From Candidatus Omnitrophota bacterium (GTDB lineage: Bacteria > Omnitrophota > Gorgyraeia > Zapsychrales > Zapsychraceae): a stretch of DNA of 64,000 nucleotides. Below, in pieces: positions 13,086 to 46,034 of the stretch; position 1 is the stretch's first letter; each line of letters opens with the position of its first letter. The notes beneath the pieces are model-generated. The model did not search any database, was not told the DNA's origin, and saw nothing but the letters and a program-made list of their open reading frames with translations. The stretch is from contig JANQMA010000017.1 of the NCBI GenBank assembly GCA_028280285.1, positions 993-64,992 of the forward strand, read 5' to 3'. The translations under genes and the position numbers were made by a program.

Positions 13086-13089
13086 ATAG

Positions 13090-14142: not shown

Positions 14143-14154
14143 AGGAATGTATAT

Positions 14155-14550
14155 ATGTTTCCTATTAAAAATATCATGACCAAAGATGTCGTTTCGGTTA
14201 CATCGGATACACCTATTTATGAGGCTATTGAGCAACTGGTCGTCAATAGGATCAGCGGTGTGCCGGTTGTAACGCACGATATGCGGCTGGTCGGTGTTTT
14301 AAGTGAGTGGGATGTTTTACAGTTATTAACGGAAAAGGAAGTTGGTAAAGAACGTACAGTCGAAAGCTATATGACTAAGGAAGTCATTAGTTTTGATGAA
14401 AATGAAAGCGCACTTAAAGTATGCGAATTTTTTAAAGACAGTTATAAGCGGCGTGCTCCTGTGATTAGAGATGGCAAGTTGGTTGGCGTTGTTAGTCGCC
14501 ATGATGTGATTGAATTAATTTTAAGAATACGAAGAAAGATTTCAAGATAG
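14155..14550 (+). CDS. CBS-pair domain protein
   Basis: 131 aa with two CBS motifs (IMTKDVVSV...VNRISGVPVV and MTKEVISF...RRAPVIRDGKLVGVVSRHDV). Confidence 0.75.
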   Translation: MFPIKNIMTKDVVSVTSDTPIYEAIEQLVVNRISGVPVVTHDMRLVGVLSEWDVLQLLTEKEVGKERTVESYMTKEVISFDENESALKVCEFFKDSYKRRAPVIRDGKLVGVVSRHDVIELILRIRRKISR

Positions 14551-14564
14551 AAAGGAATGGGATT

Positions 14565-14975
14565 ATGTGGAGAATTTTAGTGGTTGATGACAGTTTCACT
14601 AATCGTCAGCTTATTTTAGAAATTTTACGTGGCAAGGCAGAGTGTGATATGGCGGCCAATGGTATGGAGGCGATGACGGCGTATAAAGATTCATTAAATA
14701 ATAAACCGTACGATCTTATTTTGTTAGATGTGGCCATGCCGGAGATAAGCGGTACCGAGTTTTTAGGTCAACTAAGGGAACACGAGAAAACATCAGGCAT
14801 TGATTTAGGCGACGGCATACCGGTTATTATGGTAACGGCCTATGATAAACCTGTAATCGAGTCTTTCAATAAAGGGTGCGATGATTATATTTTAAAACCT
14901 GTGGACCCGGATGAATTACTGAGAAAAGTTGAGGATAAATTAGGCAAGGTTTCGAGCACTAATCAGGAAGAGTGA
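14565..14975 (+). CDS. CheY-like single-domain response regulator
   Basis: REC domain with the acidic pocket (VVDDS), phospho-acceptor Asp (LILLDVAMP), the T (VIMVTA) and the K (ILKP). Confidence 0.85.
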   Translation: MWRILVVDDSFTNRQLILEILRGKAECDMAANGMEAMTAYKDSLNNKPYDLILLDVAMPEISGTEFLGQLREHEKTSGIDLGDGIPVIMVTAYDKPVIESFNKGCDDYILKPVDPDELLRKVEDKLGKVSSTNQEE

Positions 14976-15907: not shown

Positions 15908-16841
15908 TAAAATTCTTATTTATGAAGAAGTGGCCGATGATGTGGCCATGATCGAGTATCTTTGCAAGCAGCATGAGATGGAGCCGCATCTTGCACGTGA
16001 TTTTAGCGAGGCCGAGCATATTCTTAAAAGAGAGGATATTAGTGTTGCGGTAATTAATTACGCCCTTGAAAAGTTGACCTTAAAAAGTGATATCGCGGTT
16101 GTAGCGACAGGAGAATCAAGGCTGGAGGCCAGTATGAAGATTATTGGCTACAATCCCGTCTGTTTTATTCCTAAGCCTTTGACTTTTGCGACGATTTCAT
16201 TAGGGTTGACCAAGGCGGCCAAATCATTGTGTGAGACCAAAAGTTATCCTTCTAATGTTGTTAATGTGTTTATGATTTTAGGGGAAATGGAGGCAAAGCT
16301 TATAGCCTTAACAAAAGATGAGCATCACAATATGACTTTAAGTGAACTGGTTAAAGATCATTGTGAGGAGCATTGTCCGTTTGCATGCACCGGAAGCCAG
16401 ATGAGCCAAGACGATGAAAATGAGTATGAGGTGCTTAATTATTTTACATCCCGTGGGGCCTTATTTTGTAAACGTAAAAATATTTGTGAGCTATGGCGTT
16501 TTCATGACTGGTTGGCTGAGGATTATCCGCATCTTGTCAGTGAGCGTCCAACGGATTTGTTGCGGTGTGATTCGTTGAGTGAAGAAAAGATTGGTTTTAT
16601 GGACGGTCTGACACGGGTGATTCAAAAATATAATGACAAGATCAATTTGCTTTATGAGTTGAAGTTTGAGTATGACATGAAAAAATGTGACGCCAAAAAG
16701 GAAGGACTAGAGTTTCAAAAAGGAGATCATCTTTTTTCCAAGGCAGATGAAATTATGAATTGCACTAATTGTGCGTATTGCACAGAGCATGAATGCCCCT
16801 TGGATAAATTCTTTGAAATTTTTAAAAGGAAAGTTATTTAA
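15897..16841 (+). CDS. hypothetical protein with a degenerate REC-like N-terminus and Cys-rich C-terminal motifs
   Basis: Start reassigned to the ATG at 15897 (MSVNKILIYEE), overlapping the upstream stop. The 15774 start would overlap the upstream gene by 130 nt. Cys motifs HCEEHCPFAC and CTNCAYCTEHECP (C-x2-C-x2-C-x4-C-P, ferredoxin-like spacing but with x4). Confidence 0.5.
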   Translation: MSVNKILIYEEVADDVAMIEYLCKQHEMEPHLARDFSEAEHILKREDISVAVINYALEKLTLKSDIAVVATGESRLEASMKIIGYNPVCFIPKPLTFATISLGLTKAAKSLCETKSYPSNVVNVFMILGEMEAKLIALTKDEHHNMTLSELVKDHCEEHCPFACTGSQMSQDDENEYEVLNYFTSRGALFCKRKNICELWRFHDWLAEDYPHLVSERPTDLLRCDSLSEEKIGFMDGLTRVIQKYNDKINLLYELKFEYDMKKCDAKKEGLEFQKGDHLFSKADEIMNCTNCAYCTEHECPLDKFFEIFKRKVI

Positions 16842-16844
16842 TCA

Positions 16845-18032
16845 ATGAAAAAAATACTTATTGTCGACGACGACCCAAATACAAGAAACCTCATGAAACA
16901 AGCCCTTAAAGGTAATGAGTTTATGGAGGCCGAAAACGGCATCAAGGCGCTCGAAGTGGTGGAAGACTTCGATCCCGATCTTATATTGCTTGATCAGAGA
17001 ATGCCCGAGATGGATGGCATTATGACGCTCGATGAGCTCAATAAAAAAGGCATTGAGTTTTATTGCATTATGGTGACGGCTGAAGGGACTGTGCAGTTGG
17101 CAACCGAATCGCTTAAAAGAGGTGCGATTGATTTTATTCAAAAGCCCTTTGATATTTTTGCCTTCCAGCATGTGGTGGAAAGATCCCTGCAGTATGTAGA
17201 AGTAGAAAAAGAGCGTAAACAAGCTCAAGAGGAGTTGGTTCGTCATAAAAATCATCTCGAAGAATTGGTTAAAGAAAGAACAGCCGAGGCCGATAGGGCA
17301 AGGCTCGCTGCCGAAGATGCCAATCAGGCTAAATCGGAGTTTTTGGCGAATATGAGTCATGAGCTACGCACACCGATGCATGCGATTCTAAGTTTTGCCA
17401 AGTTTGGCGATGACCGTATCGATAAAGTAGAAAAGGAAAAACTACACACATACTTTAAAGAAATACGCGGCAGCGGGGAGAGGCTGCTGAGGCTGCTTAA
17501 TGATCTTCTCGATCTTTCTAAATTGGAGGCCGGTCAGACAACATATGAAATGAAACAAGAAAAACTCTCTATTCTTATGCAAAGAGTTATCTTGGAGCTT
17601 TCATCTGTCTGTGAAGAAAAGAAAGTTTCCGTGGTATTTCAGGAGCCGGGCTTTGATGATCAAGTTTATGCTGATGCCAGCAAAATTATTCAGGTAATGG
17701 TTAATCTATTATCCAATGCCGTTAAGTTTTCTCCGGAGGGAGAAAGCATTACGATTGATTTACAAGATGATGGGGACAACATTATATATGCCGTAATTGA
17801 TAAAGGTGTGGGTATTCCGAAAGATGAGTTAGAGCATGTGTTTGATAAGTTCGTTCAAAGTAGTAAAACAAAATCCGGAGCCGGGGGAACAGGTCTTGGG
17901 TTGGCTATTGCCAAAAAGATTGTCGTTGATCATGACGGAACGATTTGGGCTGAGGAAAATCCAGAAGGAGGTGCGATCTTTAAAATGCGTCTTCCTAAGA
18001 AAAAGCCGGAGAGTGATTTCTCAGCATCATAG
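16845..18032 (+). CDS. hybrid response regulator-histidine kinase (REC-HisKA-HATPase)
   Basis: REC (ILIVDDDPNTRN...LILLDQRMPEMDG), canonical H-box ANMSHELRTPMHAIL, N box LLSNAVKFS, G1 DKGVGI, G2 GGTGLGLAI. Confidence 0.88.
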   Translation: MKKILIVDDDPNTRNLMKQALKGNEFMEAENGIKALEVVEDFDPDLILLDQRMPEMDGIMTLDELNKKGIEFYCIMVTAEGTVQLATESLKRGAIDFIQKPFDIFAFQHVVERSLQYVEVEKERKQAQEELVRHKNHLEELVKERTAEADRARLAAEDANQAKSEFLANMSHELRTPMHAILSFAKFGDDRIDKVEKEKLHTYFKEIRGSGERLLRLLNDLLDLSKLEAGQTTYEMKQEKLSILMQRVILELSSVCEEKKVSVVFQEPGFDDQVYADASKIIQVMVNLLSNAVKFSPEGESITIDLQDDGDNIIYAVIDKGVGIPKDELEHVFDKFVQSSKTKSGAGGTGLGLAIAKKIVVDHDGTIWAEENPEGGAIFKMRLPKKKPESDFSAS

Positions 18033-18053
18033 GTAACATAAGGAGAATAAACA

Positions 18054-19136
18054 GTGCCAGATAATCATTCACGCATTCTCATTGTCGATGATGAACCGTC
18101 TAATATTGCTGTTTTAGAAAATATTTTTGAAGGAGAGTTTGTCCTTAAGTCTGTGTCTTCGGGCAAAGAAGCGCTTGAGGCGATAGAGGATTTTTATCCA
18201 GACATTGTCTTACTTGACATTATGATGCCCGGGCTTGACGGGTATGAAGTCTGCCAAAGGCTTCGTGACAGAGAAGAAACGCGCTTTACAAAAATTATAT
18301 TTGTCAGCGCCAAAGAAAAGACAGAAGACAGGCTTAAAGGTTACGGTACGGGGGCGGATGATTATATCACCAAGCCTTTTGATGCCGATGAAATAGCGGC
18401 TAAGGTGCGTATTTTTTTAAAGCTCAAATATGTCGAAGAAGTTGATGAGATCAAAAATGAATTTTTAAATATGTTTGTTAAGGAAAAAAAGACGCCTTTG
18501 CGCGAGATTTTGGGGTTTGCTTCTCTTTTAAAAAAGAGTGTCTTGCCGTCTTTTGCGGATCAGGTTTCGGTTGATGAAATCATTGAACGCGGTAATCACT
18601 TATGGGAGCTTTCTAAAAAAACAAAACTTTTGTGTGAGCTTAAACACAACAAACCATTAACGCAGCAACACCAGGAGATTAATTCCCTGATTGATATGGC
18701 TGTGGAAAATGCCAAGGCTAGATGTAAAAACAAAGATATTTCGTTTCATATACCGAATGGATTTAAACAAGAGGTTTTTCTCGATCCTTCTCTATTTGCG
18801 AAGGCTTTAGCGTATGTGATTGAGAATGCTATTGAGCATTCTCAATCCGGGGGAGAAATAACCGTTTTTTGTGAAGAGGCGGATGAACGATTTTCAGTGA
18901 AAGTTAAAGATCAAGGGCAGCGCATTGACAATAAAAATATGCGAAATATTTTTAATGAATTTGCCACGTCTAATGATAATGCTCCAGAACGTCGTGGAGG
19001 GATCAACTTAACGATTGCCAGAAGAATTGCTTGGCTTCATCAAGGGGATTTTAACATTAGCAATAATGAACATGAGGGTGTCACGTTTGAGTTTAGTTTG
19101 CCTAAAACCGTCGAAAGAGGCAGTTTAACGGATTAA
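18054..19136 (+). CDS. REC-containing histidine-kinase-like protein with degenerate H-box and G2 box (likely pseudokinase)
   Basis: REC domain intact (ILIVDDEPSNIAV...[13 protein letters not shown]). The H-box reads LNMFVKEKKTPLREILGF, where the phospho-accepting His is replaced. The ATP-lid G2 reads RRGGINLT instead of GxGxG. Start GTG at 18054 with AAGGAG Shine-Dalgarno. Confidence 0.8.
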   Translation: MPDNHSRILIVDDEPSNIAVLENIFEGEFVLKSVSSGKEALEAIEDFYPDIVLLDIMMPGLDGYEVCQRLRDREETRFTKIIFVSAKEKTEDRLKGYGTGADDYITKPFDADEIAAKVRIFLKLKYVEEVDEIKNEFLNMFVKEKKTPLREILGFASLLKKSVLPSFADQVSVDEIIERGNHLWELSKKTKLLCELKHNKPLTQQHQEINSLIDMAVENAKARCKNKDISFHIPNGFKQEVFLDPSLFAKALAYVIENAIEHSQSGGEITVFCEEADERFSVKVKDQGQRIDNKNMRNIFNEFATSNDNAPERRGGINLTIARRIAWLHQGDFNISNNEHEGVTFEFSLPKTVERGSLTD

Positions 19137-19159
19137 CGTATCTTTGGGGGAATCGACTT

Positions 19160-20248
19160 ATGGACAGCCATAATCATAGAACCAAAATTTTGGCGGTGGA
19201 TGATGAGCCGACCAACATAACGATTTTCGAAAACATCTTTGAAGATAAAAAACGCTTTGAGTTAAGAACAGCTTCTTCAGGAGAAGAGGCTTTGGGTGTG
19301 ATGCCGGTGTTCAGACCGGATGTTGTTCTTTTGGATATCATGATGCCCGGCATAGACGGTTATGAAGTTTGTCAGAAAATAAGAGATGATGAAAACCTTC
19401 GTTTTACAAAGACCATTATGGTTTCCGCGAAAGCCATGCATGAGGAGAGAATTAGAGGCTATGAGTGTGGGGCCAATGATTATGTCACCAAACCATTTGA
19501 TGAAGATGAACTTCTTATGAAAGTTGAAAGTTTCTTTCAACTGAAATTTGCTAGTGAAATTAGTCAAGTGAAAGAAAATTTGATTAAGCTTGTTTCTCAT
19601 GAGTTGCGCACCCCACTTAACGGTATTTTGGGTTTTAGTGCCTTGCTTGATAAAAGTAATACGATAGGCGAAAGCGAAAAAAGATATATCCATCAGGTGA
19701 TGGAATGCGGTAATCAGCTGCTTGAGTTTTCGCAGAAAGCCTTATTGTTGTGTGATCTAAGATCAGGCAAAGCGCTCACCAAACAGTGGTGTTCGCTTAA
19801 TGAGATTATCACAAAGATTATTGCCAAACTGAAAGTCAAAGCCTCTGAATCGAATATAACTTTTTCTTATGAGGACAAAATCGATGAAGCGGTTTTAGGT
19901 GATTCTGTTCTTATTGAGCAGGCCTTAACATTTGTTATTGAAAATGCGGTTAAATTTTCCCCGGCCAATGGGGAGGTGTCCATACTGGCACAAAGTACCG
20001 GTCATGAGTGCATCATCCATGTGCAGGATCAAGGAGAGGGGATTGATGAAAGGCGGGTCGATGAGATATTTGAGGAAATGTCGCTCGATAATATGGATAA
20101 TCACCAGGAAGGCCAAGGCCTAAGCCTTGCTATTGCACAAAGTATTATGCAGTTACATGGCGGAACATTACAGTTATCGGAAAATTCTAAAGAGGGGTGT
20201 ACGTTTACGTTTAAATTTCCACCGTCGAAAGATAGCACTGTTAAGTAG
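19160..20248 (+). CDS. hybrid response regulator-histidine kinase, paralog of 18054..19136
   Basis: Same architecture and roughly 50% identical N-terminus as the upstream gene, but with the canonical H-box [15 protein letters not shown] plus DQGEGI and GQGLSLAI. Confidence 0.85.
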
Positions 20249-20262
20249 AAATTAGGGGAAAA

Positions 20263-23118
20263 ATGAATTATTTTACGAAATATTCCGGACTTCATAAATA
20301 TGCAGGTAACAAGTACAGTATTTCGGTTATTTTGATGGTTTTAAGCGGGTTTGCCTTAACAGTCTTTGGTCTTGATATGACAAAGAAGTTTGAAAGAGAA
20401 TGGGTTAAAAAGACATTTACAAACAGGGCTCTTGAATTAAGCATGGCGATCAAAGAAGAGATTGATCTTGATTTAGAAAATCTGAACTCTATCAAAGCGT
20501 TTTACGCATCAACCGGTTATGTGAACAGGATTGAATTTAAAGAATTTACTCAACCTATTTTGGAGCGTCATCCGAGTATTCGTGCCTTGGAATGGATCCC
20601 GCGGATGACCGATGAGAACCGCGAAGAATACATCGCCAAAGCGCACGTTGACGGTCATCGCGATTTTCGCATTTTCAAAGTTACTGAGGAGGGTAATTTT
20701 ATTGAGGCCAAAGCCGGTGGAGAATACTTTCCCATCTATTATGTGGAGCCTTTTGAAGATAATAAAAAGGTTTTTGGGTTCGATGTTTCTTCAAGCCCTG
20801 TGCGCTGGAGAAGTTTGATTAAATCACTTAATACCGGCCGTATGACGGCCACCGCTCCGCTTCGCCTTTTGCAAGACGATTTCAATGAATTCGGCATTTT
20901 GGTTTTTAACCCCATTTATCAAAAGAAAACTTCGGCAAGCTTTGCGGAAGAGCGTTATAAGAATATCAAGGGCTTTGTGGTAGGGGTTTTTCATATCGCC
21001 GGTATGATTGAAGGGGTGCTGACAACGTTACAAACGCAAGGGCTTAATATTTATTTGTTTGATAGTATGGCACGAATGAAAGAACAGTTATTCTATCGTT
21101 ACGAACCGGACTTCACATCAGGTGAACAACCTGAACGTTTAGACCAATCCGCTTTGGCTATAGATGTTAAAGATTTAAGATCAGGAACATTTTACGAAGA
21201 ACATTTTCGTGTAGGCGATCACACCTGGACCATTATTTGTAAGCCATCAGAAAGTTTTATAGCTTCTTTAAAAACAAATCAGTCATGGATTCCACTGTCT
21301 ATTGCTGTGTTACTCATAGCTCTTCTCATTATATATTTTATCAGTCATACTCAAAAGTCGTCTCTGGTTGAAAACATTGTCGAGGATAGGACCAAGGAAT
21401 TGTCGGTTGTTAATGATCGCCTGGAGGAGGAGGTGGAGGAGCGCAGGGCAACGGCAGAAAATTTGGCTAGAACAATCAAGGATTTGGAGAAGGCCAAAAA
21501 AGCAGCCATGAACATTATGCGGGATTTCAGAATAGAAAAGGATAAGGCTCAGGCATTAGCGCATCAAGCCCAGGCGGCGGCTCAGGCCAAAAGCGAATTT
21601 TTAGCGAACATGTCGCATGAAATCCGCACACCGATGAATTCGATACTCGGTTTTAGTAAGCTTCTCAAGCAAACAGACCTTGATGAGGAGCAAATGGATT
21701 TTATATTGACGGTTGAATCAAGCGGGGAAGTGCTGTTGGAGTTGATCAATGATATTTTAGACTTTTCTAAAATCGAAGCCGGTAAGGTGGAGTTAGAGAA
21801 AATTGATTTTGATTTAGAGCCGCTGATTGTTGATGTTTTTAAGATGATGACATCGAAGTTCGGGGGTAAAGACATTGAAACCTATATTGATATTGCCGAT
21901 AATGTGCCTGCCCGTATTAAGGGGGATACGACACGGTTAAGACAAGTGCTTATGAATTTTTTAAGCAATGCGATTAAATTTACCTCCCAGGGAGAAATTG
22001 GAATTAAGATCAATCTTGAAGAAGAACGGGAAGATGTGTCTGCACTGCGTTTTTCTGTCAATGACACAGGGATCGGAATACCCGAGGATAAACGGGAGGA
22101 AATATTTGAGTCGTTCAGCCAGGCGGATATGTCGACCAGCCGCAAGTTTGGCGGCACTGGTCTGGGGCTTGCGATTTCCAAGGCTTTAATCACGGCTATG
22201 CAGGGAAAAGTCTGGATTGAGTCAGAGGTTGGTGTCGGTAGTAGTTTTATATTTACAGGATGTTTTGGTAAAGCAGAACCGGTTGAGACAACGGCAATTA
22301 AAAAACGCGATCTGACCGGAACAAAGATTATGATTGTCGACGATAGCGTTATGTCGCAGAAGATTTCCCAGAGACTTTGTGAGCGCTTGAAACTGGATGT
22401 TTTATCTGTGGCTGATAGCGCACCGGCGGCCTTACAGAAAATAGATGAGTTGGCCGCCGGTGACAATCTTCCTGATATTATTTTAAGCGATATCATGATG
22501 CCGCAGATGAATGGCTATGCCTTGATGAAAAAAATTAAAAGCCATACAAAGTGTGATTCTGTGAGAGTGATTGCGATGACACATAACCTTGAGCTCGGCA
22601 TTGCTAAAAAAGCTAAAGAGGAAGGCTTTGACGGGTTTTTACATAAACCTTTGGTCAAAAGTGAGCTGGAAAAAGAAATCATCACAACGTTAAGTGAAAG
22701 TCAAACAGAACTAAAGAGAACTGTTTCTTCGACCGATGAACAAGGAGCCGCGCGGGATATCAGGATTCTTGTTGTCGAAGATAATATTGCCAATCAAAAG
22801 TTGCTTAAGATTCAATTGAATAAATGGGGGTATGACAGCGACTATGTCTTTAACGGGCAAGAAGCGATTGATAAGCTTAAGGAAGATGATCAGTATGATA
22901 TTTGTCTTATGGATCTGCAAATGCCTGTGATGGGTGGCGAGGAGGCCTCGCGGATTATCCGCAAGGACGTTGATAAAGAGATTCCGATCATCGCTTTAAC
23001 GGCTAAGATTGTTGATAATGTAGAAGACGAATGCCGGGAAGCGGGCATGAATGATTATGTCAGCAAACCGATTGATGCGGATGATTTAAAGGAAAAGATT
23101 TTAAAATATACAGCGTAA
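20263..23118 (+). CDS. CHASE-domain hybrid sensor histidine kinase with two C-terminal receiver domains
   Basis: TM, periplasmic CHASE-like region ([21 protein letters not shown]...[19 protein letters not shown]...[15 protein letters not shown]), second TM, coiled coil, H-box [17 protein letters not shown], HATPase ([15 protein letters not shown]), REC1 ([11 protein letters not shown]...[12 protein letters not shown]) and REC2 ([11 protein letters not shown]...[12 protein letters not shown]). Confidence 0.88.
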
Positions 23119-23161
23119 AGCATTTACTTAAAAAATGTAAGGCAAAAGGGGAGACTGCTCT

Positions 23162-23830
23162 ATGTTACATGCACCGATACCGGAAAATGAAGTTGAACGG
23201 CTCGAATCACTCAAAAAATTAAATATTCTTGATACAGCACCGGAAGAACGTTTTGATCGCATCACGCGCTGTGCGCAAAGACTGTTTGATGTGCCTATTT
23301 CAACGATCAGTTTAGTCGACACTAATCGCGAATGGTTTAAATCATGCCAGGGGACCGACGTGACAAAAGGCGACCGGTCTATTTCTTTTTGCGGTCATGC
23401 GATGCTCGCTGATGATTTGCTGGTGATTCCCGATACACATCAGGATGAGCGTTTTAAGGATAATCCAATGGTTGTGGGAGAGCCGCACTTACGTTTTTAT
23501 GCCGGGCAGTCCTTGCGCGGGCCCGGGGCGCATCGTATAGGCACATTTTGTATTAAGGATCAGAAGCCACGGAATATGACCGATAAGGAGAAAGAAAATT
23601 TAAAAGACTTGGCTGCCTGGGTTGAATTGGAGCTTAATGCCTCTGATTTAAGTTTGGCATTGGACGAACGCAATCAAACGCTAGACAAATTAAAACACAA
23701 TAATCAGGAATTGGAAGAGATGAATGAGCTGATGATGGATCGCGAGATACGCATGGTTGAGCTAAAGACAGAAATTAACGATTTGTGCGAAAAATTAGGA
23801 GAAAAATCACGCTACGAAGTGCAAGACTAA
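23162..23830 (+). CDS. GAF-domain protein with a C-terminal coiled coil
   Basis: GAF-like N-terminus (EVERLESLKKLNILDTAPEERFDRITRCAQRLFDVPISTISLVD...FCGHAM...FYAG) and a coiled-coil tail. Confidence 0.7.
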   Translation: MLHAPIPENEVERLESLKKLNILDTAPEERFDRITRCAQRLFDVPISTISLVDTNREWFKSCQGTDVTKGDRSISFCGHAMLADDLLVIPDTHQDERFKDNPMVVGEPHLRFYAGQSLRGPGAHRIGTFCIKDQKPRNMTDKEKENLKDLAAWVELELNASDLSLALDERNQTLDKLKHNNQELEEMNELMMDREIRMVELKTEINDLCEKLGEKSRYEVQD

Positions 23831-35083: not shown

Positions 35084-35242
35084 ATAATATCACTAAAACC
35101 AGTCATTCTCGTGGCTGGTTTTATTTATATATTGACTTTTCAAAAAAATACGGTATCATATATGCTTATAATTTAGACTTAGGTTTTCTCTATATTAGAG
35201 ACTTAAGTTTATATATATCAATGGTTTAGAAAGGATTCACCC

Positions 35243-36403
35243 ATGGCCGAATGGATCGGCATTGATCGCCGGGCAAGGCGTTGTTACGGATTTGATGAAG
35301 TTTCGCTTGTCCCGGGCATGACCAGTATCAACCCGAACGAAGTTGATACCAGCTGTGAGATTGCGGGTATTAAATTCAAGGTTCCGATTCTGGCGGCGGC
35401 TATGGATGGTGTGGTCGATGTCAAATTTGCGATCGCTATGGGCAAACTTGGCGGCATCGCCGTTCTCAATCTGGACGGCGTGCAGACACGCTATGCTGAT
35501 CCCAATGAAATTTTGGGTGAAATCGTTGAGGCAACACCCGAAAAGGCCACAGAACTTCTTCAAAAGCTTTATCAACCAAAAGTCAAAACAGATTTAATCG
35601 CCAAGCGTGTCGAGGAAATTAAAAAAGCTAAGGTGCCGGCGGTTGTCAGCTGTATTCCTCAAAACGCCGAGAAGTTTTCTAAAATCGCGGCAGAGGCCGG
35701 AGCGGATTTATTTATCGTCCAGTCACAAGTATCATCCCCAACACATATCTCGACGGAATACAAGGTTGTTGATTACGGAAAATTATGCAAGGCAAGCAGT
35801 GTGCCGATTGCTATCGGTAATGCGGTTACCTATAAAATGTCACTCGAGTTGATGGAGCTTGGGGCCAGCGCGATTCTCATCGGTGTCGGGCCGGGTGCGG
35901 CGTGTACAACACGCGGTGTTTTAGGTATCGGTGTTCCGCAAATTACAGCGACGGTGGATTCGGCTGCGGCACGCGATCATTTTTATAAAAAGACAGGGAA
36001 ATACGTTCCGATTATCACCGACGGCGGTATGCGTATCGGTGGGGAGATTTGTAAAGCGTTTGCGTCGGGGGCTGACTCTGTTATGGTCGGCTCAGCGTTT
36101 GCACGGGCCGAAGAAGCGCCGGGACGCGGCTATCATTGGGGTATGGCCACATCGCATGCGAACCTGCCGCGCGGCACACGTATTTATGTGGGGACAACCG
36201 GAACAGTGGAAGAGATTTTATTTGGCCCGGCCAAGGTGGATGACGGGTCGCAGAATTTGGTTGGGGCGCTTCAGACATCCATGGGATCTTTAGGGGCAGC
36301 CAACATCAAAGCAATGCATGATGTGGAAATGATTATTGCACCATCCATACAGACCGAGGGAAAAGTTTTCCAAAAAGGTCAAGGCGTTGGGATGGGCAAG
36401 TAA
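35243..36403 (+). CDS. guaB: IMP dehydrogenase-family protein lacking the CBS subdomain
   Basis: Catalytic loop [20 protein letters not shown] with the active-site Cys. 386 aa, with no CBS pair. Immediately upstream of guaA. Confidence 0.75.
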
Positions 36404-36422
36404 AATACAAACAGGTGGTAAA

Positions 36423-38273
36423 ATGGTAAAAAAAGCGACAAAGAAAAAGGCAGTAAAAGCAAAAAAGGCTGTAAAAACCAAAGCAGCTAAACGGACAGCA
36501 GCCAAAAAGGTAGCGCCAAAGAAGACGGTTAAGACGGTAGCGAAGAAAAAAGCGGTTAAGAAGGCAGCGAAAAAGGTGGCAAAGAAGGCGCCGGCTAAAA
36601 AAACAAAACAAAAATCCGTCTCAGGTCTTAAGACACGTTTCCGTGTTAATCCTAAAAAGCGCATTGGAAAACTGCCAAAACTCAAATCCGTTAAGTCGCG
36701 TATCGGAACAACGATTAAGATTCGCAAGATCCGCAATAAAGATGTAATTATCATTCTTGATTTTGGTTCGCAATACACACAACTGATTGCCCGTCGTATT
36801 CGCGAGAATAAAGTTTATTCCAAAATCGTTCCTTATAATATTACACCGGAAGAAATACAAGAAATAAAACCAAAGGGGATTATTCTTTCCGGGGGGCCAA
36901 TTAGTGTTTATGACGAGAATGCCCCGCGTCCTAATCCGGGGATCTTTGAACTTGATTTGCCTGTACTTGGTATTTGCTACGGCATGCAGGTGATTACAGA
37001 GATGTTTAACGGTAAGGTTAAGAAAAGTGCCGAGCGGGAGTTTGGCCGCGCCGAGCTTTTTATCGACAGTAATAAAGATCTATTCCAAAATCTGCCGTCG
37101 AATTTGACATGCTGGATGAGCCATAGCGATGAGCTTAAGAAAATGCCAGACGGGTTTGTTAAGCTGGCGCATACGCTTAATGCAGATTGTGCGGCCTTTG
37201 CCAATCGCCGTAAAAAGATTTATGGTGTTCAGTTTCATCCGGAAGTTGTGCATACACAACGCGGCGAGCAAATCCTCAACAACTTTGTTTTTTCTATTTG
37301 TGGATCGCTGCCTCGCTGGACCATGGACCGTTTTATTAATGCAACGGTTAAACAGATTAAAGAAAAGGTAGGCAATAAAAAAGTCGTGCTTGGTTTAAGC
37401 GGCGGGGTGGATTCATCGGTGGCGGCTGTTCTGTTGCAAAGGGCCATTGGTAAAAAGCTGTATTGTATTTTTGTCGACAATGGATTATTGCGTAAAGGCG
37501 AGGTGGAGAAGGTCACCAAGACGTTTAAAGAGAACTTTAAAATGAATTTAACGGTGGCCAATGCCGAGAAAGGATTTTTAAAACGTCTGGCGGGCATCGA
37601 AGATCCGGAAGAAAAACGCAAAATTATCGGCGATGAATTTGTTAAAGTTTTTCTTGAAAAATCCAAGCGCGTTAAAAACGTTGGGTTTCTCGGGCAAGGT
37701 ACTTTGTATCCGGATGTGATTGAGTCGATTTCACCGACGGGCGGACCTTCGGCGGTCATCAAATCGCATCATAATGTTGGCGGTCTGCCGAAAGATTTAA
37801 AGCTCGAGTTAATCGAGCCTTTCCGTGAGTTGTTTAAAGATGAAGTACGTGCCATCGGTAAAAAAATCGATGTGCCGGAGTCCATCATTAATCGTCAACC
37901 GTTTCCAGGCCCCGGGCTTGCTGTCCGTATTCTCGGCGAGGTCACCAAAGAGCGTCTTGATATTCTGCGTGAGGCTGATCAGCGGTTCCTCGATGAGATT
38001 AAAAAGGCTGGACTTTACGATGAGATCTGGCAGGCCTTTGCCGTGCTTCTGCCGGTTAAGACAGTCGGGGTGATGGGGGATCAACGTACGTATGAAAATG
38101 TGATTGCGCTGCGCGCGGTCACATCGGTCGACGGGATGACAGCTGACTGGGCGCAGATTCCGCATGAAACACTTGCCAAAGTTTCCAACCGCATTATCAA
38201 TGAAGTGCCCGGTGTCAACCGTGTGGTCTATGATATCAGCTCCAAACCACCAGCGACGATTGAGTGGGAGTAA
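36423..38273 (+). CDS. guaA: GMP synthase (glutamine-hydrolysing) with an in-frame N-terminal Lys/Ala-rich histone-H1-like extension of about 95 aa
   Basis: GATase ([20 protein letters not shown]...CYGMQ...HPE), ATP-PPase ([10 protein letters not shown]) and the C-terminal dimerisation domain (..PATIEWE). The only upstream in-frame start is the ATG at 36423 ([15 protein letters not shown]...). There is no ATG/GTG/TTG between the KA-rich repeat and the GATase N-terminus, so the extension is translationally fused. Confidence 0.8.
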
Positions 38274-38519: not shown

Positions 38520-41500
38520 GTGAAACGCACTCACTGGACATATAGATGCATTGCACTTGTCGTAAGCTGTTTATTTACAGTTACTTCGATAAATCCCGTC
38601 TATGCCCAGATGCAACCTACCCAGGCCATTGCTCCTAAACCATTGCCTTTAAATGTGTTAAGTCAACCCTATGAACCGATTTTGATCAAAGGCCTTAAGG
38701 TCAATCAGACCAATCCATTTGAGATGGAGTTTATTGTAAGTGATCCGTGGTCCGTGGTCCGTGGTCAGCGGAATACTGATCACAGACCACAGAGCACAGA
38801 CCACCTAGAGCAGGAGTCTACTCAATTAATTAAATACTTCCTTGCCGCTTTAACCACTCCCGAGCAAGACATGTGGGTCAACCTATCCCCGTATGAGAAG
38901 AATCGGATTATTCCAGAGTCATTTGGTCGGACAGAAATGGGACGGGAGCTGCTTGTACAGGACTATCTTTTAAAACAGGTTACAGCATCATTGCTTCATC
39001 CGGATGGGGAGTATGGACAAGAGTTTTGGAGTAAAATAGCAACCCAAACATCGGAGGACATACCATTAGAATTATTCAATAAGGTCTGGATCATGCCGGA
39101 TAAAGCGGTGGTGTATGAGAATGAAGGGATAGCGTATGTGGTAGAGGCGAGTCTTAAGGTTATGTTGGAGGAAGATTACCTTGCGCAGCAAAAGAGTGGT
39201 CCGTGGTCCGTGGTCAGTGATCTGTCAAAAAATACGACCACAGATCACAGAACACAGACCACACAAATCATTCGTGAAACAATCATTCCCGCTATCGAAA
39301 CCGAGGTCAACAATAGCAAGAATTTCGCCAAGCTCCGCCAGATCTATCACAGCCTCATCCTGGCGACATGGTACAAGAAAAAGATGCAAAACGCGATTTT
39401 AACCCAAGTCTATGCCGATCAAAACAAGACTAATGGTGTAAGCCACAATGATCCTAAAGCAGCTGAAAAAATCTGGCAAGAGTACACCAAGACATTTAAA
39501 GAAGGGGCGTATAACTTTATCAAAGAAGAATACGATCCACAGACTCAGCAAATCGTTCCACGGAAGTATTTCAGCGGGGGGATGGCGATGGAGGTTGTGC
39601 TATCAGAACCGGCAGCGCTTACATCACAACAACAAGAGACTATTCCCGACAACGCCTACCTCGTCCGTGTTGCGTTAAACGAATTGACTCCCGATTCTGA
39701 TAGCGCGGCAATGGTTAAGAAAAAATCAGCGGATGATTTTAAATATAATGTCAATATAAGGACCCCCAAATTACAGGATCAACTCCCAGGGTTAGCAAAA
39801 AAACGGGAACAGACAAAGAAGGCACTTATTGGTTATTTCAATCAAATGATACATCATAATCCATTTGAAATGCCGAAATTTAATGTGAATTATAATCGAA
39901 TCATGCATTTACTACGACATATGATAGGGTTTGATGCTATTGGATTCTCATTTTCTGAACAAGATCCTGATGGCTTTATTACAAAAGCTGCGGTTTCTAA
40001 TGTGCTTATCCCTTTAATTGAACAAACAAAATTTCCTTTGTCTGTTGACCGTATGACACAATTTGTATTAGAGGCAAATTTAGATAATGAACGTCAGTTT
40101 AAATATATCGAAGCGCTTAATGATTTTAAAGTTTTTGCTACTTCTTATTCGGAAGGCGCCGAAAACGCAGCGTTGACAGCGCCCGCTCCCGACCCCGCCG
40201 TGATGACGCAAGAGGAACAACTTTCTATCGATCCGGCATCACTTGCTGAGTTAGCATTGGCTATGACTGAAAAGGATGTTCAAGATATCGCTGAAGTAGC
40301 CCGGTTGATAAAACAGAACTCCGATCATTATGCAAAAATATTGCTCAAAGAATATAACCAAACCAAAGACCAATTCAAAAATCGAGAAGAAATAATAAAG
40401 ATTGACGCTGTTGTAGACGATCCGACAATCCAGAAATTAATAAAAATATTTAAACGGATAAGCCGTAAAACAGGGAAAGAAAACAGCCGTAATGTTTCGC
40501 GTAGTTTAATGGGCTTAATTTATTTCTATAAATATATAACATATTTATATAAGCCCAAATATCAAATGGATGTTATAAGTGACATATCATTAAATATACT
40601 TTTGGGGGATATAATTAGGGAAAGCAATACTAAGAGAGGCCTTAAATCTTCCACCATTCCTATAGAAGATCAAATGCGCAATGTTGTTTTAGATTTTGCC
40701 GATAATTTAGGCAATTTGGTTGGGCGGATCAATGCACTGCCAAAAGCGAACACTACAGAGTTTGCACAAGTGTGGGCCTCTATGATTAATGAGGATAATT
40801 TTACCAGGGCAGATCTTTATCAGAACATAAAATCTTTTGGCAGGGTTTTAGAAGCGCGACGCGGGCGTTTTTTAACATTCTTAAGAGCAGACCGCAGCTT
40901 AACACGTGAAGCAAAAGAAACGTTGATTCTAAAAGCGCTTGCAATGAATCAAGAAGGGAAGGATCCAAAGGCAATTGTGGATGAATTAATGCAAGTGTGG
41001 ATTCCTCAATTTAAACGCAGTGAAGCAATATATGGTGTGCTAAGGATGACCGGCTGGGAATCAGAAATTCATAGATACCAATGGGGTGAATATGCAAAAT
41101 ATGCCCCTTTTCCTGTTCGGGAAATCACCAATGTCTACCGGGATATTGTTGGTATGCATTTAGATCCTCATATTTCCTCACATGATTGGACAGAGTATGT
41201 CGGACGTCCGGCACTCTCCTGGTTTGTTCAGTGGAAAAAAATAGAAGCCATGACTCAATTGAGTTTTATACCACTTGAAGATCCGGATGGTAATTTGATT
41301 TACAATGATTTGCAGGTTAATGGGGTTATCCCCGAGGAAATTTTAAAACTTGTTTATAAGGACGTTCATCCGCTGGCAACTATTTCCGGTACAGAAGATA
41401 AAAAGTGGAGGACGGAACGATGGCAGTTATATAAGGGCCATTACTATCCACCACTCGAAAGTGAATGGATAGAGTTTGTCAAAATGCTGCTCTATTCCTC

Positions 41501-44500
41501 CCAAAATCGCTTGAAGAGTAGACGAGGCAATCATGATGCTGTCATTGTAAAGCACGCTTATAATTTAAAAATAGGCAACCTTCGTTATGATCTGTATCAG
41601 TCAAATAATTTATGGAGGCTGCAGTATCCGTATGGAGATATATCTGATCTTCCATTTTCTGATTATGGGAAGAGCCTGCAGACAGCACAAGTTCTACATG
41701 GCTTGATGATGCATCATCTTGTTGTTAAGTATGGTCTCATTAATAATGCTCCGGCTGAACATCATGATTTTATTATGCGTTTATCTGATATGTGGCAAAG
41801 TTTTGAAAACGATCTTGAGGAAACTCTTCAAAACCGGGGTTATACGCGAGAGAATTTGCGTTTGCATGTTTTGTCGAATGCTCATGGAGTCGATGGTATT
41901 AAATATCTTAGGGAATTGTTTATTAATCGTATATTTCGATTACGTGAAAAGAAAGTTACTGAGGAAATACGTAATCTTGTCGAGTCGACCCTCACTGAAG
42001 TGGATGATGTTTTAACGGAAGAATATGAAAAGAGAAAGGACGTCGAAAACGCGGCATTGATTAAACAGCGTCCAGCGTTGAGCGTAGAGCGTATAGCGGA
42101 TAGTGATATTAATCTAACCGCTAAACGCCATCCGCTAGACACTAAAACCGACCCCGCCGCGATGGTGAAACAAAATTTGGCGAACATTGACCAAAATATT
42201 TATGAGGATATTGTAGACCATCTTCTATGGCATAAGCCAAATGTGATTGTAAAAGATCATTATCGCGATATTTTAGCGCGGTTTATTCACGATAATAGAA
42301 AAAAAGAAAAAAAATTCTGGTCTCGTGAGGGTAAAAAAATATTTTCCAAAGAGCAGGTGCGCACTTTATTGGAATCTTGGCCCGGAAATAATATGCAATA
42401 TAAAGCACATGTTAATTCTTCGGGGAATAGAGAAATATCAATCATATTGCATCAAAAAATTAAACCGACTTTTACTATTGATCTTACATTTAAGAGAGAC
42501 GGACAGGTTAAGCTAGGTAAACAGTTTAAATCGCATCAAAACTATATAGTGGATAGATTAGAAGAGAGTTATGGGATCGACCGTATTGAAGCCCGTGTGA
42601 TTGCACAAATAGCACGTCGTTATTGGTTTAAAAGTGTTTTTATCCCTATGCTGCGCGAGATGGAAATTGACCATCTGCATGGTAAAAAAATAGATGAAAA
42701 ATCAACATTTTTCGCAGAGATGGGTTTTAAAGACGGTGTTTTATCTGTCGACCCCGCCGCGATGGCGGAGCAGGAGCAAGAGTCCAAAAAAGATCAATCC
42801 GCTCCGGTGTCTTTCAATGTTGGCGATGAATTGAGGAGGATTTATCATAATACAACACGTCCTAAAATTTTCAAAGTAGAAAAATGGCCTGGGCAGGCTA
42901 TACAACTACGAATGGAAGAGGATCCTCTTCCACGAGATAAACCGCCTAATTCTATTACTGATGAGGATTTGACATATCGCATATACGCATCGGTCACACA
43001 TGGGAAATCCGCGTTCTACTATCCTGTAGCGATGCGTTCGGGTATTTTTTACAAAAATGATATTGTTGATTTAACAAAAGGCTGGCAAATTACTTATAAT
43101 TACCCGGCCGTCTATAAGCTTATTCAAAACTACCGAGATAAGAATGGATATGCAAGTTATTTGGAGGCGATTGATCATCTATTAGAAAACGATGAAGAAA
43201 CCCGTAAATATGAGAAACATTTAATTAACCAAATCATTTCTTTGTTTCCGATTTTGCAAATTTTTTATGGGTTTTCATCAGATGAGCAAGTGGATGAGTA
43301 TTTTAACCAGGCCCCTCAACAATTAGAAAATAAAGGTATTGCCTCGGCTTTACTTGAATATTTAGGAAGTTATTTACCGGTTGGAACAAAAGTCAAAATT
43401 ATCGGAGCGAATCGGCCGACCGTAGAAGCTCTTAATAAGGGAACGGTATTTGAAGATACATTGCTCGGGAAAATGTATACGCGTATCGGATTTAAAGTTT
43501 TATCTATTGAACAAAAAGACGGACAAAATCCAATTGTTGTTTTCCAGAAGACAAAAAATGTAAAACCACGCGCTAAGTGGAAAGATGTAACGAAGTTAGG
43601 AGGTCACGTTTTATCCGTAGAGAGCGGTGTCGTTTCTGATTCCGAAGGTGTCGAAAACGCTGCATTGAGCAAAGTTGTCCCTGACTCTGCCGTAATGGTC
43701 GGTTTGAAAACGGATCCAATAGAGTTATCCATGGTGGAAGAAAACTATATTAGACTTTTAATAGAAAATAATTACCAGAAACAAACTTTTCAGGTGATGA
43801 TTAACGATATTAAAGATCCTGATCGAATTCACCAGCTTATGACGGAAGTCTTAAAGCGAAAAGGGTATTATCGACCAGAGATCAATAATTTTAATGATAG
43901 AAGTAGGTTTCCTTTGGAGGTTCCAGGTGATAGAGGGCTTATTTTAACGTCTATGGGTGATGGTAATGAAGATATTTTAAGATTTACGGTTGAAAGTAAT
44001 AATGTGATTATGTGGAAGCGTCCTAAAATTGGTGGTTCAAAATTGGGTGTTGCACCGGTTGCCTATGTTTGGTGGGCAACTCATCCAGAAATTAGAAAAG
44101 AGTTGTCCGGGAAGCCAATGAAGGGGTATAAGGCAGATTATAGGCAGGGGAGGGCTCTTGAAAAAGCATGGATTTTTAAAATTGCCTTACCCGATGGAGC
44201 TAAAGATTGGAACAAATATGATTATTCAGGTTCTTTTCCTGTTTGGCAAAAAGATTTAAAACAAAACGTCGAAAACGCGGCGTTGACAGAGCCTGCTCCC
44301 GATCCCGCCGCGATGGCGAAGCAGGAATTTGAACGGACTGATTCAGCGGTAGTTGCAGATCAGGAAGGACAATATATTATCCCTGGTTTTGATATTATAA
44401 AATATTCGGTTGATTCTTATGATCAAGAAAATCGAGAAGCAAGAGAAAGTCGAGAGGCAAGATATGAATTGAATGATTGGCAAGAAGGTGTTGTATTGGC

Positions 44501-46034
44501 TCAAATTGAAAATATCATTATGCAGGCACAAGAAATTGGCGATATAGATATGGAAAATTATTTAATATATGTTTTGGAACAAGGAGTTAAAAAATTTATT
44601 AAATCTGATACGTCAGAATATATTCAGGCAGTAGGTAAAACAAAAATGGACGGTCGTGAAGTTGTTTCAATAGCCGAGGAATTACTTAATCAATCAAGAT
44701 CTGATGATGACGTGAAATTATTGGTTAAATTGGTTTTAATCCATGAATTTAATCATATTCTTGATCACAAATTAAATCGTTTATCATTAAACATTATGAA
44801 ATTAGTTGACATAAATCTTATAGAACGTTCGGCCTTGATTCGTTCAGCTGCATATTTTGATGGATTTATAAAGAAAGAAGGCGATGGATTAAATGATTTT
44901 ATTGTCATGTACCGATTTGATGGCGATAAAATTATGGCTTATACTTCAACAAATTCGGAAATATCTTCTGTGAAATCAGATTATCAAAAGCCACCTGTTA
45001 TCATGCCTGGGGAAAATCGGTATACATATTATGATCAATTAGCTAGAAAAGGAAATATTGTAACGTCTGAAGAAACTGGGTCTATATATTATTATGAGTC
45101 ATATAGAAAAGGGGGTGATGACACTACACTGGAAAAAAATGGTGTCGTTTCTGAAAAAAATGGTGTCGTTTCTGATTCCGAAGGTGTTGAAAACGCTACG
45201 TTGGCAAAGGGCGCTTCCGACAATGCCGCGATGGCGGATAATTCAGATAGTGATGAGGTTTTTATAGAACAAGATAATTATACTTTTAAATATCGACGAC
45301 CAACACAAATAGCAATGGCTTCGGTAACAGTGATGAATCCCAAAGGAGTTCATGGTGGTCCTTCACAATATATAACGGGTTTGGTTAAATCGTATCAAGA
45401 TATTTGGCCACTAACGATTAAAATGAAATTTAAGGGTGAATACATTGATACGAATGATGTGAAAAATATTATGGAATTGAAAATAAAACAAGGTGATGTA
45501 TTGGAAATAGAGATGTTTGGGAGTGAAGAAGGGGCTTTAAAGTTTGTGCAAAGTATGGCCGCAAGGGTAGCTGATTCTGAAACACGTAAAAAGTATGAAG
45601 CGAAAATCACAAGACAGCCATTAAATGAGGATGACGCAGCATTGACTAAAGGTGGTATAGACTTCGACGCCTCCAAAATGGATCTAGAGATTCGGACGGA
45701 ACAAAGCCAGATGCTCGATGCTCGCCCGCCCCGCCGCTTCGCGGCGGAAGCTGCGGGCCGGGGATGCTCGATGCTAGAGGACGAAGAGTTGCGAAAAGAG
45801 TGCCTTACTAACACCTCTAGTGGTATACAGTTTAAGTTTACTCCCCAACAGATTGAGGGGATGCGCCAGAATATTACGGGCTTTAATCCGGTGATTATTA
45901 ATATCCAGCCGATTGTGAACTTGCCGTTGTTTTTGGGGTTGAATGATATTGAGGACGCGCCGGATGAGACAGAAACGGTAGAGGCAGATGGTCAGGATCT
46001 TTTAGCAAGAATGGAGGAGTATTCATATAACTAG
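38520..46034 (+). CDS. giant secreted protein (2504 aa) of unknown function, with repeated ENAAL..PAPDPAAM modules and an HEFNH motif
   Basis: Uninterrupted 7.5-kb ORF in an AT-rich genome. Signal peptide MKRTHWTYRCIALVVSCLFTVTSINPVYA-Q. HExxH at about nt 44745 (LVLIHEFNHILDH). Contains three in-frame palindromic-element insertions and 6-7 GC-rich repeat modules. Confidence 0.8.
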   Translation: MKRTHWTYRCIALVVSCLFTVTSINPVYAQMQPTQAIAPKPLPLNVLSQPYEPILIKGLKVNQTNPFEMEFIVSDPWSVVRGQRNTDHRPQSTDHLEQESTQLIKYFLAALTTPEQDMWVNLSPYEKNRIIPESFGRTEMGRELLVQDYLLKQVTASLLHPDGEYGQEFWSKIATQTSEDIPLELFNKVWIMPDKAVVYENEGIAYVVEASLKVMLEEDYLAQQKSGPWSVVSDLSKNTTTDHRTQTTQIIRETIIPAIETEVNNSKNFAKLRQIYHSLILATWYKKKMQNAILTQVYADQNKTNGVSHNDPKAAEKIWQEYTKTFKEGAYNFIKEEYDPQTQQIVPRKYFSGGMAMEVVLSEPAALTSQQQETIPDNAYLVRVALNELTPDSDSAAMVKKKSADDFKYNVNIRTPKLQDQLPGLAKKREQTKKALIGYFNQMIHHNPFEMPKFNVNYNRIMHLLRHMIGFDAIGFSFSEQDPDGFITKAAVSNVLIPLIEQTKFPLSVDRMTQFVLEANLDNERQFKYIEALNDFKVFATSYSEGAENAALTAPAPDPAVMTQEEQLSIDPASLAELALAMTEKDVQDIAEVARLIKQNSDHYAKILLKEYNQTKDQFKNREEIIKIDAVVDDPTIQKLIKIFKRISRKTGKENSRNVSRSLMGLIYFYKYITYLYKPKYQMDVISDISLNILLGDIIRESNTKRGLKSSTIPIEDQMRNVVLDFADNLGNLVGRINALPKANTTEFAQVWASMINEDNFTRADLYQNIKSFGRVLEARRGRFLTFLRADRSLTREAKETLILKALAMNQEGKDPKAIVDELMQVWIPQFKRSEAIYGVLRMTGWESEIHRYQWGEYAKYAPFPVREITNVYRDIVGMHLDPHISSHDWTEYVGRPALSWFVQWKKIEAMTQLSFIPLEDPDGNLIYNDLQVNGVIPEEILKLVYKDVHPLATISGTEDKKWRTERWQLYKGHYYPPLESEWIEFVKMLLYSSQNRLKSRRGNHDAVIVKHAYNLKIGNLRYDLYQSNNLWRLQYPYGDISDLPFSDYGKSLQTAQVLHGLMMHHLVVKYGLINNAPAEHHDFIMRLSDMWQSFENDLEETLQNRGYTRENLRLHVLSNAHGVDGIKYLRELFINRIFRLREKKVTEEIRNLVESTLTEVDDVLTEEYEKRKDVENAALIKQRPALSVERIADSDINLTAKRHPLDTKTDPAAMVKQNLANIDQNIYEDIVDHLLWHKPNVIVKDHYRDILARFIHDNRKKEKKFWSREGKKIFSKEQVRTLLESWPGNNMQYKAHVNSSGNREISIILHQKIKPTFTIDLTFKRDGQVKLGKQFKSHQNYIVDRLEESYGIDRIEARVIAQIARRYWFKSVFIPMLREMEIDHLHGKKIDEKSTFFAEMGFKDGVLSVDPAAMAEQEQESKKDQSAPVSFNVGDELRRIYHNTTRPKIFKVEKWPGQAIQLRMEEDPLPRDKPPNSITDEDLTYRIYASVTHGKSAFYYPVAMRSGIFYKNDIVDLTKGWQITYNYPAVYKLIQNYRDKNGYASYLEAIDHLLENDEETRKYEKHLINQIISLFPILQIFYGFSSDEQVDEYFNQAPQQLENKGIASALLEYLGSYLPVGTKVKIIGANRPTVEALNKGTVFEDTLLGKMYTRIGFKVLSIEQKDGQNPIVVFQKTKNVKPRAKWKDVTKLGGHVLSVESGVVSDSEGVENAALSKVVPDSAVMVGLKTDPIELSMVEENYIRLLIENNYQKQTFQVMINDIKDPDRIHQLMTEVLKRKGYYRPEINNFNDRSRFPLEVPGDRGLILTSMGDGNEDILRFTVESNNVIMWKRPKIGGSKLGVAPVAYVWWATHPEIRKELSGKPMKGYKADYRQGRALEKAWIFKIALPDGAKDWNKYDYSGSFPVWQKDLKQNVENAALTEPAPDPAAMAKQEFERTDSAVVADQEGQYIIPGFDIIKYSVDSYDQENREARESREARYELNDWQEGVVLAQIENIIMQAQEIGDIDMENYLIYVLEQGVKKFIKSDTSEYIQAVGKTKMDGREVVSIAEELLNQSRSDDDVKLLVKLVLIHEFNHILDHKLNRLSLNIMKLVDINLIERSALIRSAAYFDGFIKKEGDGLNDFIVMYRFDGDKIMAYTSTNSEISSVKSDYQKPPVIMPGENRYTYYDQLARKGNIVTSEETGSIYYYESYRKGGDDTTLEKNGVVSEKNGVVSDSEGVENATLAKGASDNAAMADNSDSDEVFIEQDNYTFKYRRPTQIAMASVTVMNPKGVHGGPSQYITGLVKSYQDIWPLTIKMKFKGEYIDTNDVKNIMELKIKQGDVLEIEMFGSEEGALKFVQSMAARVADSETRKKYEAKITRQPLNEDDAALTKGGIDFDASKMDLEIRTEQSQMLDARPPRRFAAEAAGRGCSMLEDEELRKECLTNTSSGIQFKFTPQQIEGMRQNITGFNPVIINIQPIVNLPLFLGLNDIEDAPDETETVEADGQDLLARMEEYSYN
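38741..38804. repeat. GTGGTCYGTG-family element, copy 4, in frame inside the giant ORF
   Basis: GATCCGTGGTCCGTGGTCCGTGGTCAGCGGAATACTGATCACAGACCACAGAGCACAGACCAC, translated as DPWSVVRGQRNTDHRPQSTDH. Confidence 0.85.
39196..39263. repeat. GTGGTCYGTG-family element, copy 5, in frame inside the giant ORF
   Basis: GTGGTCCGTGGTCCGTGGTCAGTGATCTG...GACCACAGATCACAGAACACAGACCAC, translated as SGPWSVVSDLSKNTTTDHRTQTTQ. Confidence 0.85.

Follow-up and report, generated by a model that had tools for sequence, protein, structure and literature searches.

The guaA locus and its reading frame

The stretch of DNA analysed here, referred to as the window, comprises 64,000 nucleotides (nt) of contig JANQMA010000017.1 from a Candidatus Omnitrophota bacterium and carries guaA, the gene for GMP synthase, extended at its 5' end by codons for a lysine-rich arm. 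GMP synthase is among the most conserved of housekeeping enzymes, and the Omnitrophota are an uncultured phylum of nanobacteria. The guaA open reading frame (ORF) runs in a single frame on the forward strand from an ATG at 36423 to a stop codon at 38273 and encodes 616 amino acids (aa), its start lying 19 nt past the TAA (36401-36403) of the upstream gene (Table 1). A first-pass annotation of the window had described a histone H1-like, Lys/Ala-rich domain translationally fused to the N-terminus of GMP synthase and preceded by GGTGG and this ATG. The GGTGG is present as described. Of 17 orthologous loci, 14 have a G-rich tetramer resembling a Shine-Dalgarno (SD) sequence approximately 4 to 10 nt before the equivalent ATG.

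Table 1. Features of the guaA locus, in window positions.
Feature	Position	Strand	Basis or remark
Terminator-like hairpin after groEL, then promoter-like TTGACT-16-TATCAT before guaB3	35094..35159	+	Consensus scan
GuaB3-family gene related to inosine monophosphate dehydrogenase (IMPDH), 386 aa, no CBS pair	35243..36403	+	TIGR01304; IMPDH barrel aa 15-364
SD-like GGTGG	36414..36418	+	4 nt 5' of ATG; read in sequence
Start codon and variable Lys-rich low-complexity tail, aa 1-67, net charge +30	36423..36623	+	Composition
Conserved 41-aa basic motif, aa 68-108, net charge +15	36624..36746	+	Alignments, pN/pS, profile search
Class-I glutamine amidotransferase (GATase) domain, aa 109-295	36747..37307	+	Pfam GATase, TIGR00888
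ATP-pyrophosphatase (ATP-PPase) and C-terminal dimerisation domains, aa 296-616, and stop	37308..38273	+	TIGR00884, GMP_synt_C

Residues 109-616 matched the GuaA equivalog model NF000848 over profile positions 1-512, with 819.4 bits against a cut-off of 400. Matches to the individual domains were obtained with Pfam GATase (aa 111-290, E = 7.7e-48), TIGR00888 (aa 109-294), TIGR00884 (aa 304-616, 495.7 bits) and PF00958 GMP_synt_C, the dimerisation domain (aa 524-615, E = 6.6e-48), and Pfam also sees an NAD_synthase-like ATP-PPase region. The GATase triad C185, H272 and E274 was invariant among 104 sequences, as were S326, G327, G328, D330 and S331 of the P-loop SGGVDS (aa 326-331), V329 being conserved in at least 90%. 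The best solved relative, 7sbc_A, aligned from query residue 106, and residues 106-616 align end to end with canonical GuaA (PDB 7SBC and E. coli 1GPM; 616.8 and 596.6 bits). The triad, P-loop and dimerisation domain of canonical GuaA are all present, and the profile matches indicate that the product is a bona fide GMP synthase with an intact catalytic core. It differs from canonical GuaA in its 108-residue N-terminal arm, which has no counterpart in solved structures or in 75 GuaA from other phyla, and in a core isoelectric point (pI) of 9.0, whereas the core is acidic elsewhere.

The 108 codons that precede the first GATase strand contain no stop in the guaA frame, against 6 and 11 in the other two. 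On shuffling of this A-rich stretch, 24 of 20,000 shuffles remained open, with a mean of 6.2 stops per shuffle. The first-pass annotation had held that no ATG, GTG or TTG was available for an independent start of guaA; this stands for ATG and TTG, but one GTG does occur at 36576 (codon 52), the only canonical in-frame start after 36423. Initiation there would leave a 57-aa extension. The GTG has no convincing SD, and its position is not conserved: in the four loci with an in-frame GTG in the tail, the distance to the GATase strand differs every time. An identical 616-aa protein is encoded by the separately generated Logan assembly SRR20820735, which may share reads with the assembly of the window. 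An antisense ORF of 162 aa (36290-36778, reverse strand) was considered as a gene and rejected, being a Phe/Leu-rich shadow of the Lys codons.

Distribution and composition of the extension

The extension was encoded, with the reading frame kept throughout, in all 120 of the best database homologues (67-100% identity). Where named, these homologues are labelled Candidatus Omnitrophica or Omnitrophota, with the exception of one apparently mis-binned record, and almost all are 560-631 aa long. At least 40 extra N-terminal residues were annotated in 113 of them (median 76, maximum 123). Seven carried short annotations, and inspection of the DNA of three (P0071, P0102 and P0090) located the missing part upstream and in frame. 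Since this upstream DNA encodes the conserved motif described below in the guaA frame, the annotated starts of these three are miscalls at internal Met codons. The three proteins are annotated at 523-533 aa, so that 114-186 nt of in-frame, motif-encoding DNA go unannotated; in-frame guaA coding DNA outside the public annotations lies at 1387-1500 of locus L095, 1315-1500 of L096 and approximately 2840-3000 of L002. Annotation pipelines remove the guaA extension in some genomes.

At the DNA level, a scan of genome contigs with the full protein was dominated by GuaA of other phyla and yielded four extension-bearing loci and 76 others, 75 of which could be analysed; a scan of metagenomes with a 12-sequence alignment of the motif yielded 13 loci. 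An upstream in-frame stop could be placed in 15 of the 17 DNA loci, 1-17 codons before the first ATG. The N-terminus encoded in these loci reads M-[A/P/V]-K-K, and some (e.g. L083) offer no in-frame start besides the first ATG. The 75 loci of other phyla (at most 63% identity) served as a negative control, from which the extension-less Omnitrophota locus L016 was left out; in these 75, the first strand follows after just 3-14 residues. A fusion of this kind is indeed unusual, as the first-pass annotation had supposed. Its central proposal, that the extension is translationally fused to GuaA, is upheld by the 108 open codons and by the closest homologues. On the sequence evidence, guaA is almost certainly translated from the ATG at 36423, both here and in a large clade of Omnitrophota, and the N-terminal fusion is real. 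The extension-bearing sub-lineage includes Ca. Zapsychrus exili (P0032); the order Zapsychrales was placed in the class Velamenicoccia by Seymour et al. (PMC10066038). Neither a lysine-rich extension nor a charge reversal of GuaA, in the Omnitrophota or elsewhere, is described in the searchable literature.

Three features had been overlooked in the first-pass annotation: the 41-aa motif at residues 68-108, the restriction of the extension to one clade and a reversal of charge across the whole enzyme. The motif has the consensus GLKTRFKVxPKKRIGRLPKLKKVRSRIAASIKVRKIRSKDV and runs directly into the first GATase strand at a fixed distance, its net charge ranging from +8 to +22 across orthologues. 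Among 91 pairs of loci, synonymous sites of the motif codons were saturated (proportion of synonymous differences, pS, 0.80) and the proportion of non-synonymous differences (pN) was 0.23, giving a pN/pS of 0.29. The first 100 GATase codons gave a pN/pS of 0.19 with a pN of 0.16. A pN of 0.23 against a saturated pS argues for translation of the motif in the guaA frame and for purifying selection on it.

Among 1.84 billion representative proteins, a profile built from the motif matched six, all of them truncated GuaA N-termini; it revealed neither a stand-alone motif gene nor a fusion to any other family. Genomes of the lineage had been proposed as the place to find either GuaA extensions or a stand-alone KA-rich gene upstream of guaA; the former were found in all 120 closest homologues, and of the latter no stand-alone copy was detected by the motif profile among the representatives. 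Searches of Pfam, NCBIfam and PDB with the motif and tail identified no family. The motif thus appears, from these profile searches, to be newly recognised and exclusive to GuaA, and it offers an easy way of recognising one Omnitrophota sub-lineage from sequence. The sole PDB match of the motif was to tau repeat R1 (MPDLKNVKSKIGS; PDB 6cvj), which was treated as a chance match given per-repeat i-E-values above 100. The tau-R1-like stretch corresponds to aa 84-97 (36672-36713) and may serve as an analogy, that of an extended basic peptide on an acidic polymer.

Modelling with AlphaFold2 (AF2) from a 104-sequence alignment gave a well folded core. Residues 1-107 were assigned no secondary structure and scored 32-50 in the predicted local distance difference test (pLDDT; 32-44 in the tail and approximately 48-50 in the motif); the model predicts that they are disordered. 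Two segments of the motif, LKTRFKV and RIxxSIKVR, alternate between basic and hydrophobic residues. Their hydrophobic moment at β-periodicity reaches 0.97, against at most 0.66, and mostly below 0.45, for the arm at helical periodicity, so that the 170-degree (β) periodicity is favoured over the 100-degree (helical) one. An amphipathic α-helix of the kind found in eukaryotic aminoacyl-tRNA synthetase-type appendages was looked for, and AF2 assigned no helix to residues 1-107. A membrane-binding amphipathic helix was ruled out by the hydrophobic moment together with the AF2 model.

The tail that precedes the motif is of a different nature. Residues 1-66 of the window GuaA include 29 Lys, 16 Ala, 9 Val and 6 Thr. 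Across 104 orthologues the tail varies in length from 4 to 79 aa and is not alignable between relatives, with a median Lys content of 41%. Ala amounts to 24% in this genome against a median of 9% (0-29%) among the orthologues, where Val and Thr are about as frequent as Ala and many tails are K/T/V-rich. The conserved property of the tail is its richness in Lys, and because the median Ala content is only 9%, the H1-like mix of Lys and Ala is confined to this genome. The DNA of the tail contains imperfect tandem repeats of 12-27 nt in only 2-2.7 copies, which fit turnover of the tail by slippage. The longest run of A is 7 nt. AAA outnumbers AAG by 16:13 in the tail and by 31:14 in the core, a comparison considered uninformative; the risk of poly-A slippage is low.

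The reading of the arm as a histone H1-like domain in the sense of a family did not survive these comparisons. The Pfam model PF07382 (HC2) scored 15.1 bits (E = 0.026), far short of its cut-off of 40; Pfam gave no match to Hc1 or linker histone, and NCBIfam returned nothing relevant. Conserved regular Lys/Ala/Pro repeats (KPAA, S/TPKK or AKKA) were found neither in the arm nor in its relatives. By these searches the arm appears H1-like in composition only and lies outside any H1-like family.

Charge of the enzyme and proposed function of the arm

The basic character of the protein is not confined to the arm. In extension-bearing Omnitrophota (n = 104) the GuaA core has a net charge of +6 to +24 and a pI of 8.8-9.7, whereas in other phyla (n = 75) the median net charge is -12 and the median pI 5.7 (Mann-Whitney p = 2.5e-27). 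The shift is seen in the GATase domain (+5.4 against -4.2) and in the ATP-PPase domain (+11.9 against -3.0), the charge of the dimerisation domain being unchanged, and approximately 33 alignment columns contribute to it. A second Omnitrophota clade (P0127-P0246 and L016) lacks the extension; its proteins are 512-515 aa long and start M(K)KD[TI], and their cores (n = 120) are more basic than the extended ones, with net charges of +9 to +39 (median +24) and a median pI of 9.6. Since the extension-less clade is also basic, the charge reversal of GuaA seems to be phylum-wide and independent of the arm, which looks like an addition in one sub-lineage. A proteome-wide bias towards lysine or basic residues was ruled out: the window proteome is ordinary (38 main ORFs, median pI 5.8), and GuaA is the only ORF in the 64 kb with at least 11 Lys in any 30 residues.

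With a charge of +45 on the arm, the whole protein carries approximately +53 per protomer and more than +100 per dimer, and at some +53 per protomer it should bind cellular polyanions. We propose that the arm, aided by the basic core, would hold dimeric GuaA electrostatically on an intracellular polyanion, for which RNA/ribosomes or the nucleoid would be the most likely candidates and polyphosphate (polyP) a less likely one. The motif, with its two alternating basic/hydrophobic β-like segments, would dock specifically and fold as it binds, and the Lys tail would supply non-specific avidity. The outcome would be that GMP synthesis is localised or retained at the nucleic-acid compartment of cells of approximately 0.2 µm; a second, structural role of GuaA at that compartment may also be possible. 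A tethering function of this kind, suggested by analogy with other Lys-rich proteins, is in our judgement evenly poised between right and wrong, and we lean slightly towards the combined statement that the arm is a selected, clade-specific element with such a function.

The closest analogue may be DdbA of Streptomyces, in which an N-terminal H1-like Lys-rich domain is fused to a DksA-like domain and, on its own, binds and condenses DNA in vitro (PMC3643593). Like the GuaA arm, it is a lineage-restricted, Lys-rich N-terminal extension of variable length on an otherwise ordinary protein. The two share no sequence homology, however, and DdbA possesses (S/T)(A/T)AKK pentapeptides, whereas the GuaA arm has no conserved repeat and includes instead a non-repetitive 41-aa motif. 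The partner domain of DdbA acts on the transcription machinery, whereas that in the Omnitrophota is a metabolic enzyme.

AlgP and PhaF have KPAA domains, whose targets are the nucleoid and polyP granules and which space out cytoplasmic bodies (PMC9239181). These domains and chlamydial Hc1/Hc2 resemble the arm in being disordered (as predicted for the arm), strongly cationic and Lys/Ala(/Pro)-rich. Tails of this kind bind DNA, AlgP being found on polyP granules as well. The tethering proposed for GuaA has its parallel in PhaF, which ties a cytoplasmic body to the nucleoid. In contrast, the GuaA arm has no KPAA periodicity, Ala and Pro are not conserved among its orthologues, and it is attached N-terminally to an enzyme, not to a protein dedicated to the nucleoid.

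Eukaryotic class II aminoacyl-tRNA synthetases and MetAP2 also bear Lys-rich appended extensions. In E. coli, RNase R and YihI have Lys-rich regions with which they bind polyP (PMC12345225). In each of these an enzyme core is combined with a flexible polybasic appendage, as in GuaA, the appendage adding non-specific affinity for RNA, ribosomes or polyP. Unlike GuaA, those enzymes have RNA or nascent chains as substrates. The synthetase extensions are moreover helical, whereas the GuaA arm shows β-like periodicity and no predicted helix. To our knowledge, GMP synthase has no macromolecular substrate.

Several observations weigh against electrostatic tethering. AF2 gave the arm neither a confident structure nor a docked position on the core, so that the supposed docking motif is without structure in the model. 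A few orthologue tails are nearly neutral, with a minimum net charge of +1, and bulk charge in the tail is not universally needed. The adjacent GuaB3 (loci L001-L004 and L088-L096, compared within the Omnitrophota only) is mildly basic too, with a net charge of -4 to +11 and a median pI of 8.7, and part of the charge shift may be broader than GuaA. There is, finally, no obvious reason for tethering GMP synthase in particular.

If the tether is real, it would be a clear bacterial case of nucleotide synthesis spatially organised through a disordered region, and would point towards the way in which ultra-small cells cope with enzymes present in few copies. A bolder version, which we offer tentatively and consider rather doubtful, is that Omnitrophota GuaA has been recruited as a nucleoid- or ribosome-associated, polyanion-bound protein, the charge reversal being phylum-wide and one clade adding the docking motif and poly-Lys arm. 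Were it true, a core purine enzyme would double as a component of chromatin or ribosomes, or would partition by hitch-hiking on the nucleoid, in cells of approximately 0.2 µm.

Among the alternatives, the motif might be a protein-protein or intramolecular regulatory peptide, directed at an acidic partner, at GuaB3 or at the enzyme's own domains for coupling of GATase and ATP-PPase, with the tail as a spacer or solubility bristle. The sequence specificity of the motif, its fixed distance from the first GATase strand and its purifying selection would suit such a role, as would the conserved synteny of guaB3 and guaA and the retention of the motif where the tail is short (13 aa in L002) or near-neutral (charge down to +1). 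GuaB3 is not acidic, however, and AF2 leaves the motif undocked on the core at a pLDDT of approximately 50. The charge reversal of both catalytic domains and the approximately 40% Lys upheld in most tails are also left unexplained, and we consider a purely regulatory peptide unlikely.

The extension could instead be a functionless, neutral low-complexity expansion arising from replication slippage of AAG/AAA-rich DNA, as the variable and unalignable tail (4-79 aa) and its imperfect 12-27-nt tandem repeats might suggest. Against this, the extension was encoded in every clade member examined, the motif retains a pN/pS of 0.29 with synonymous sites saturated, the Lys fraction stays near 0.4 despite turnover of the sequence, and the charge of the core co-varies. 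Neutrality is on these grounds improbable for the extension as a whole.

Direction of GuaA by the polybasic arm to the anionic inner face of the cytoplasmic membrane is suggested by the high positive charge and interspersed hydrophobic residues, but seems quite improbable in view of the low helical moment (at most 0.66), the high β moment (to 0.97) and the lack of an AF2 helix. The arm has no hydrophobic anchor or lipidation motif, and there is no known rationale for a soluble purine enzyme at the membrane.

The alternative raised in the first-pass annotation, of a separate histone-like ORF that has lost its stop next to a guaA with a non-canonical start, or else of an assembly error hiding a stop or frameshift, might draw on the shortened annotations of some gene callers (523-550 aa) and on ATT and ATC codons near the GATase start, but can be dismissed as very improbable, given that over 120 divergent sequences, drawn from separate assemblies, share this in-frame architecture, and given the selected motif that bridges the junction and continues into the GATase strand, the lack of any stand-alone homologue among 1.84e9 representatives and the 150-218 nt of coding-like DNA that the shortened annotations leave unexplained.

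Neighbouring genes

The gene upstream of guaA had been taken for guaB. It scored 419.6 bits against a cut-off of 342 with TIGR01304 and only 153 against 481.5 with the canonical guaB model TIGR01302, and was reassigned to the GuaB3 family. Its product contains a GPGAACTTR segment with a Cys, which probably corresponds to the catalytic-Cys loop of IMPDH. The gene is probably co-transcribed with guaA, and the order groEL-guaB3-guaA is kept across Omnitrophota loci, including the extension-less L016. The gap between groEL and guaB3, with its terminator-like and promoter-like elements, is a weak candidate for an operon boundary, the number of sites in the consensus scan being no higher than expected from shuffled sequence. 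Rfam recognised only three tRNAs in the window.

Directly downstream of guaA lies an ORF of 2504 aa (38520-46034, forward strand), whose sole Pfam match is an HPr-like domain at aa 2268-2338. The peptide VENAAL[TS]xxxPD[PS]A[AV]M recurs in it at approximately aa 548, 1176, 1712, 1918 and 2224, and the related sites DDAALT and DPAAM also occur. It suggests a conserved element between modules, be it a linker, a cleavage site or a sorting signal. Chemotaxis and two-component genes form a long cluster, all on the forward strand, at 4485-23830. Its products include a methyl-accepting chemotaxis protein (MCP), a CheA-like kinase carrying Hpt and CheW domains, and a hybrid histidine kinase that combines a CHASE domain with receiver domains. 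In several ORFs of this cluster the N-terminus resembles that of a response regulator.

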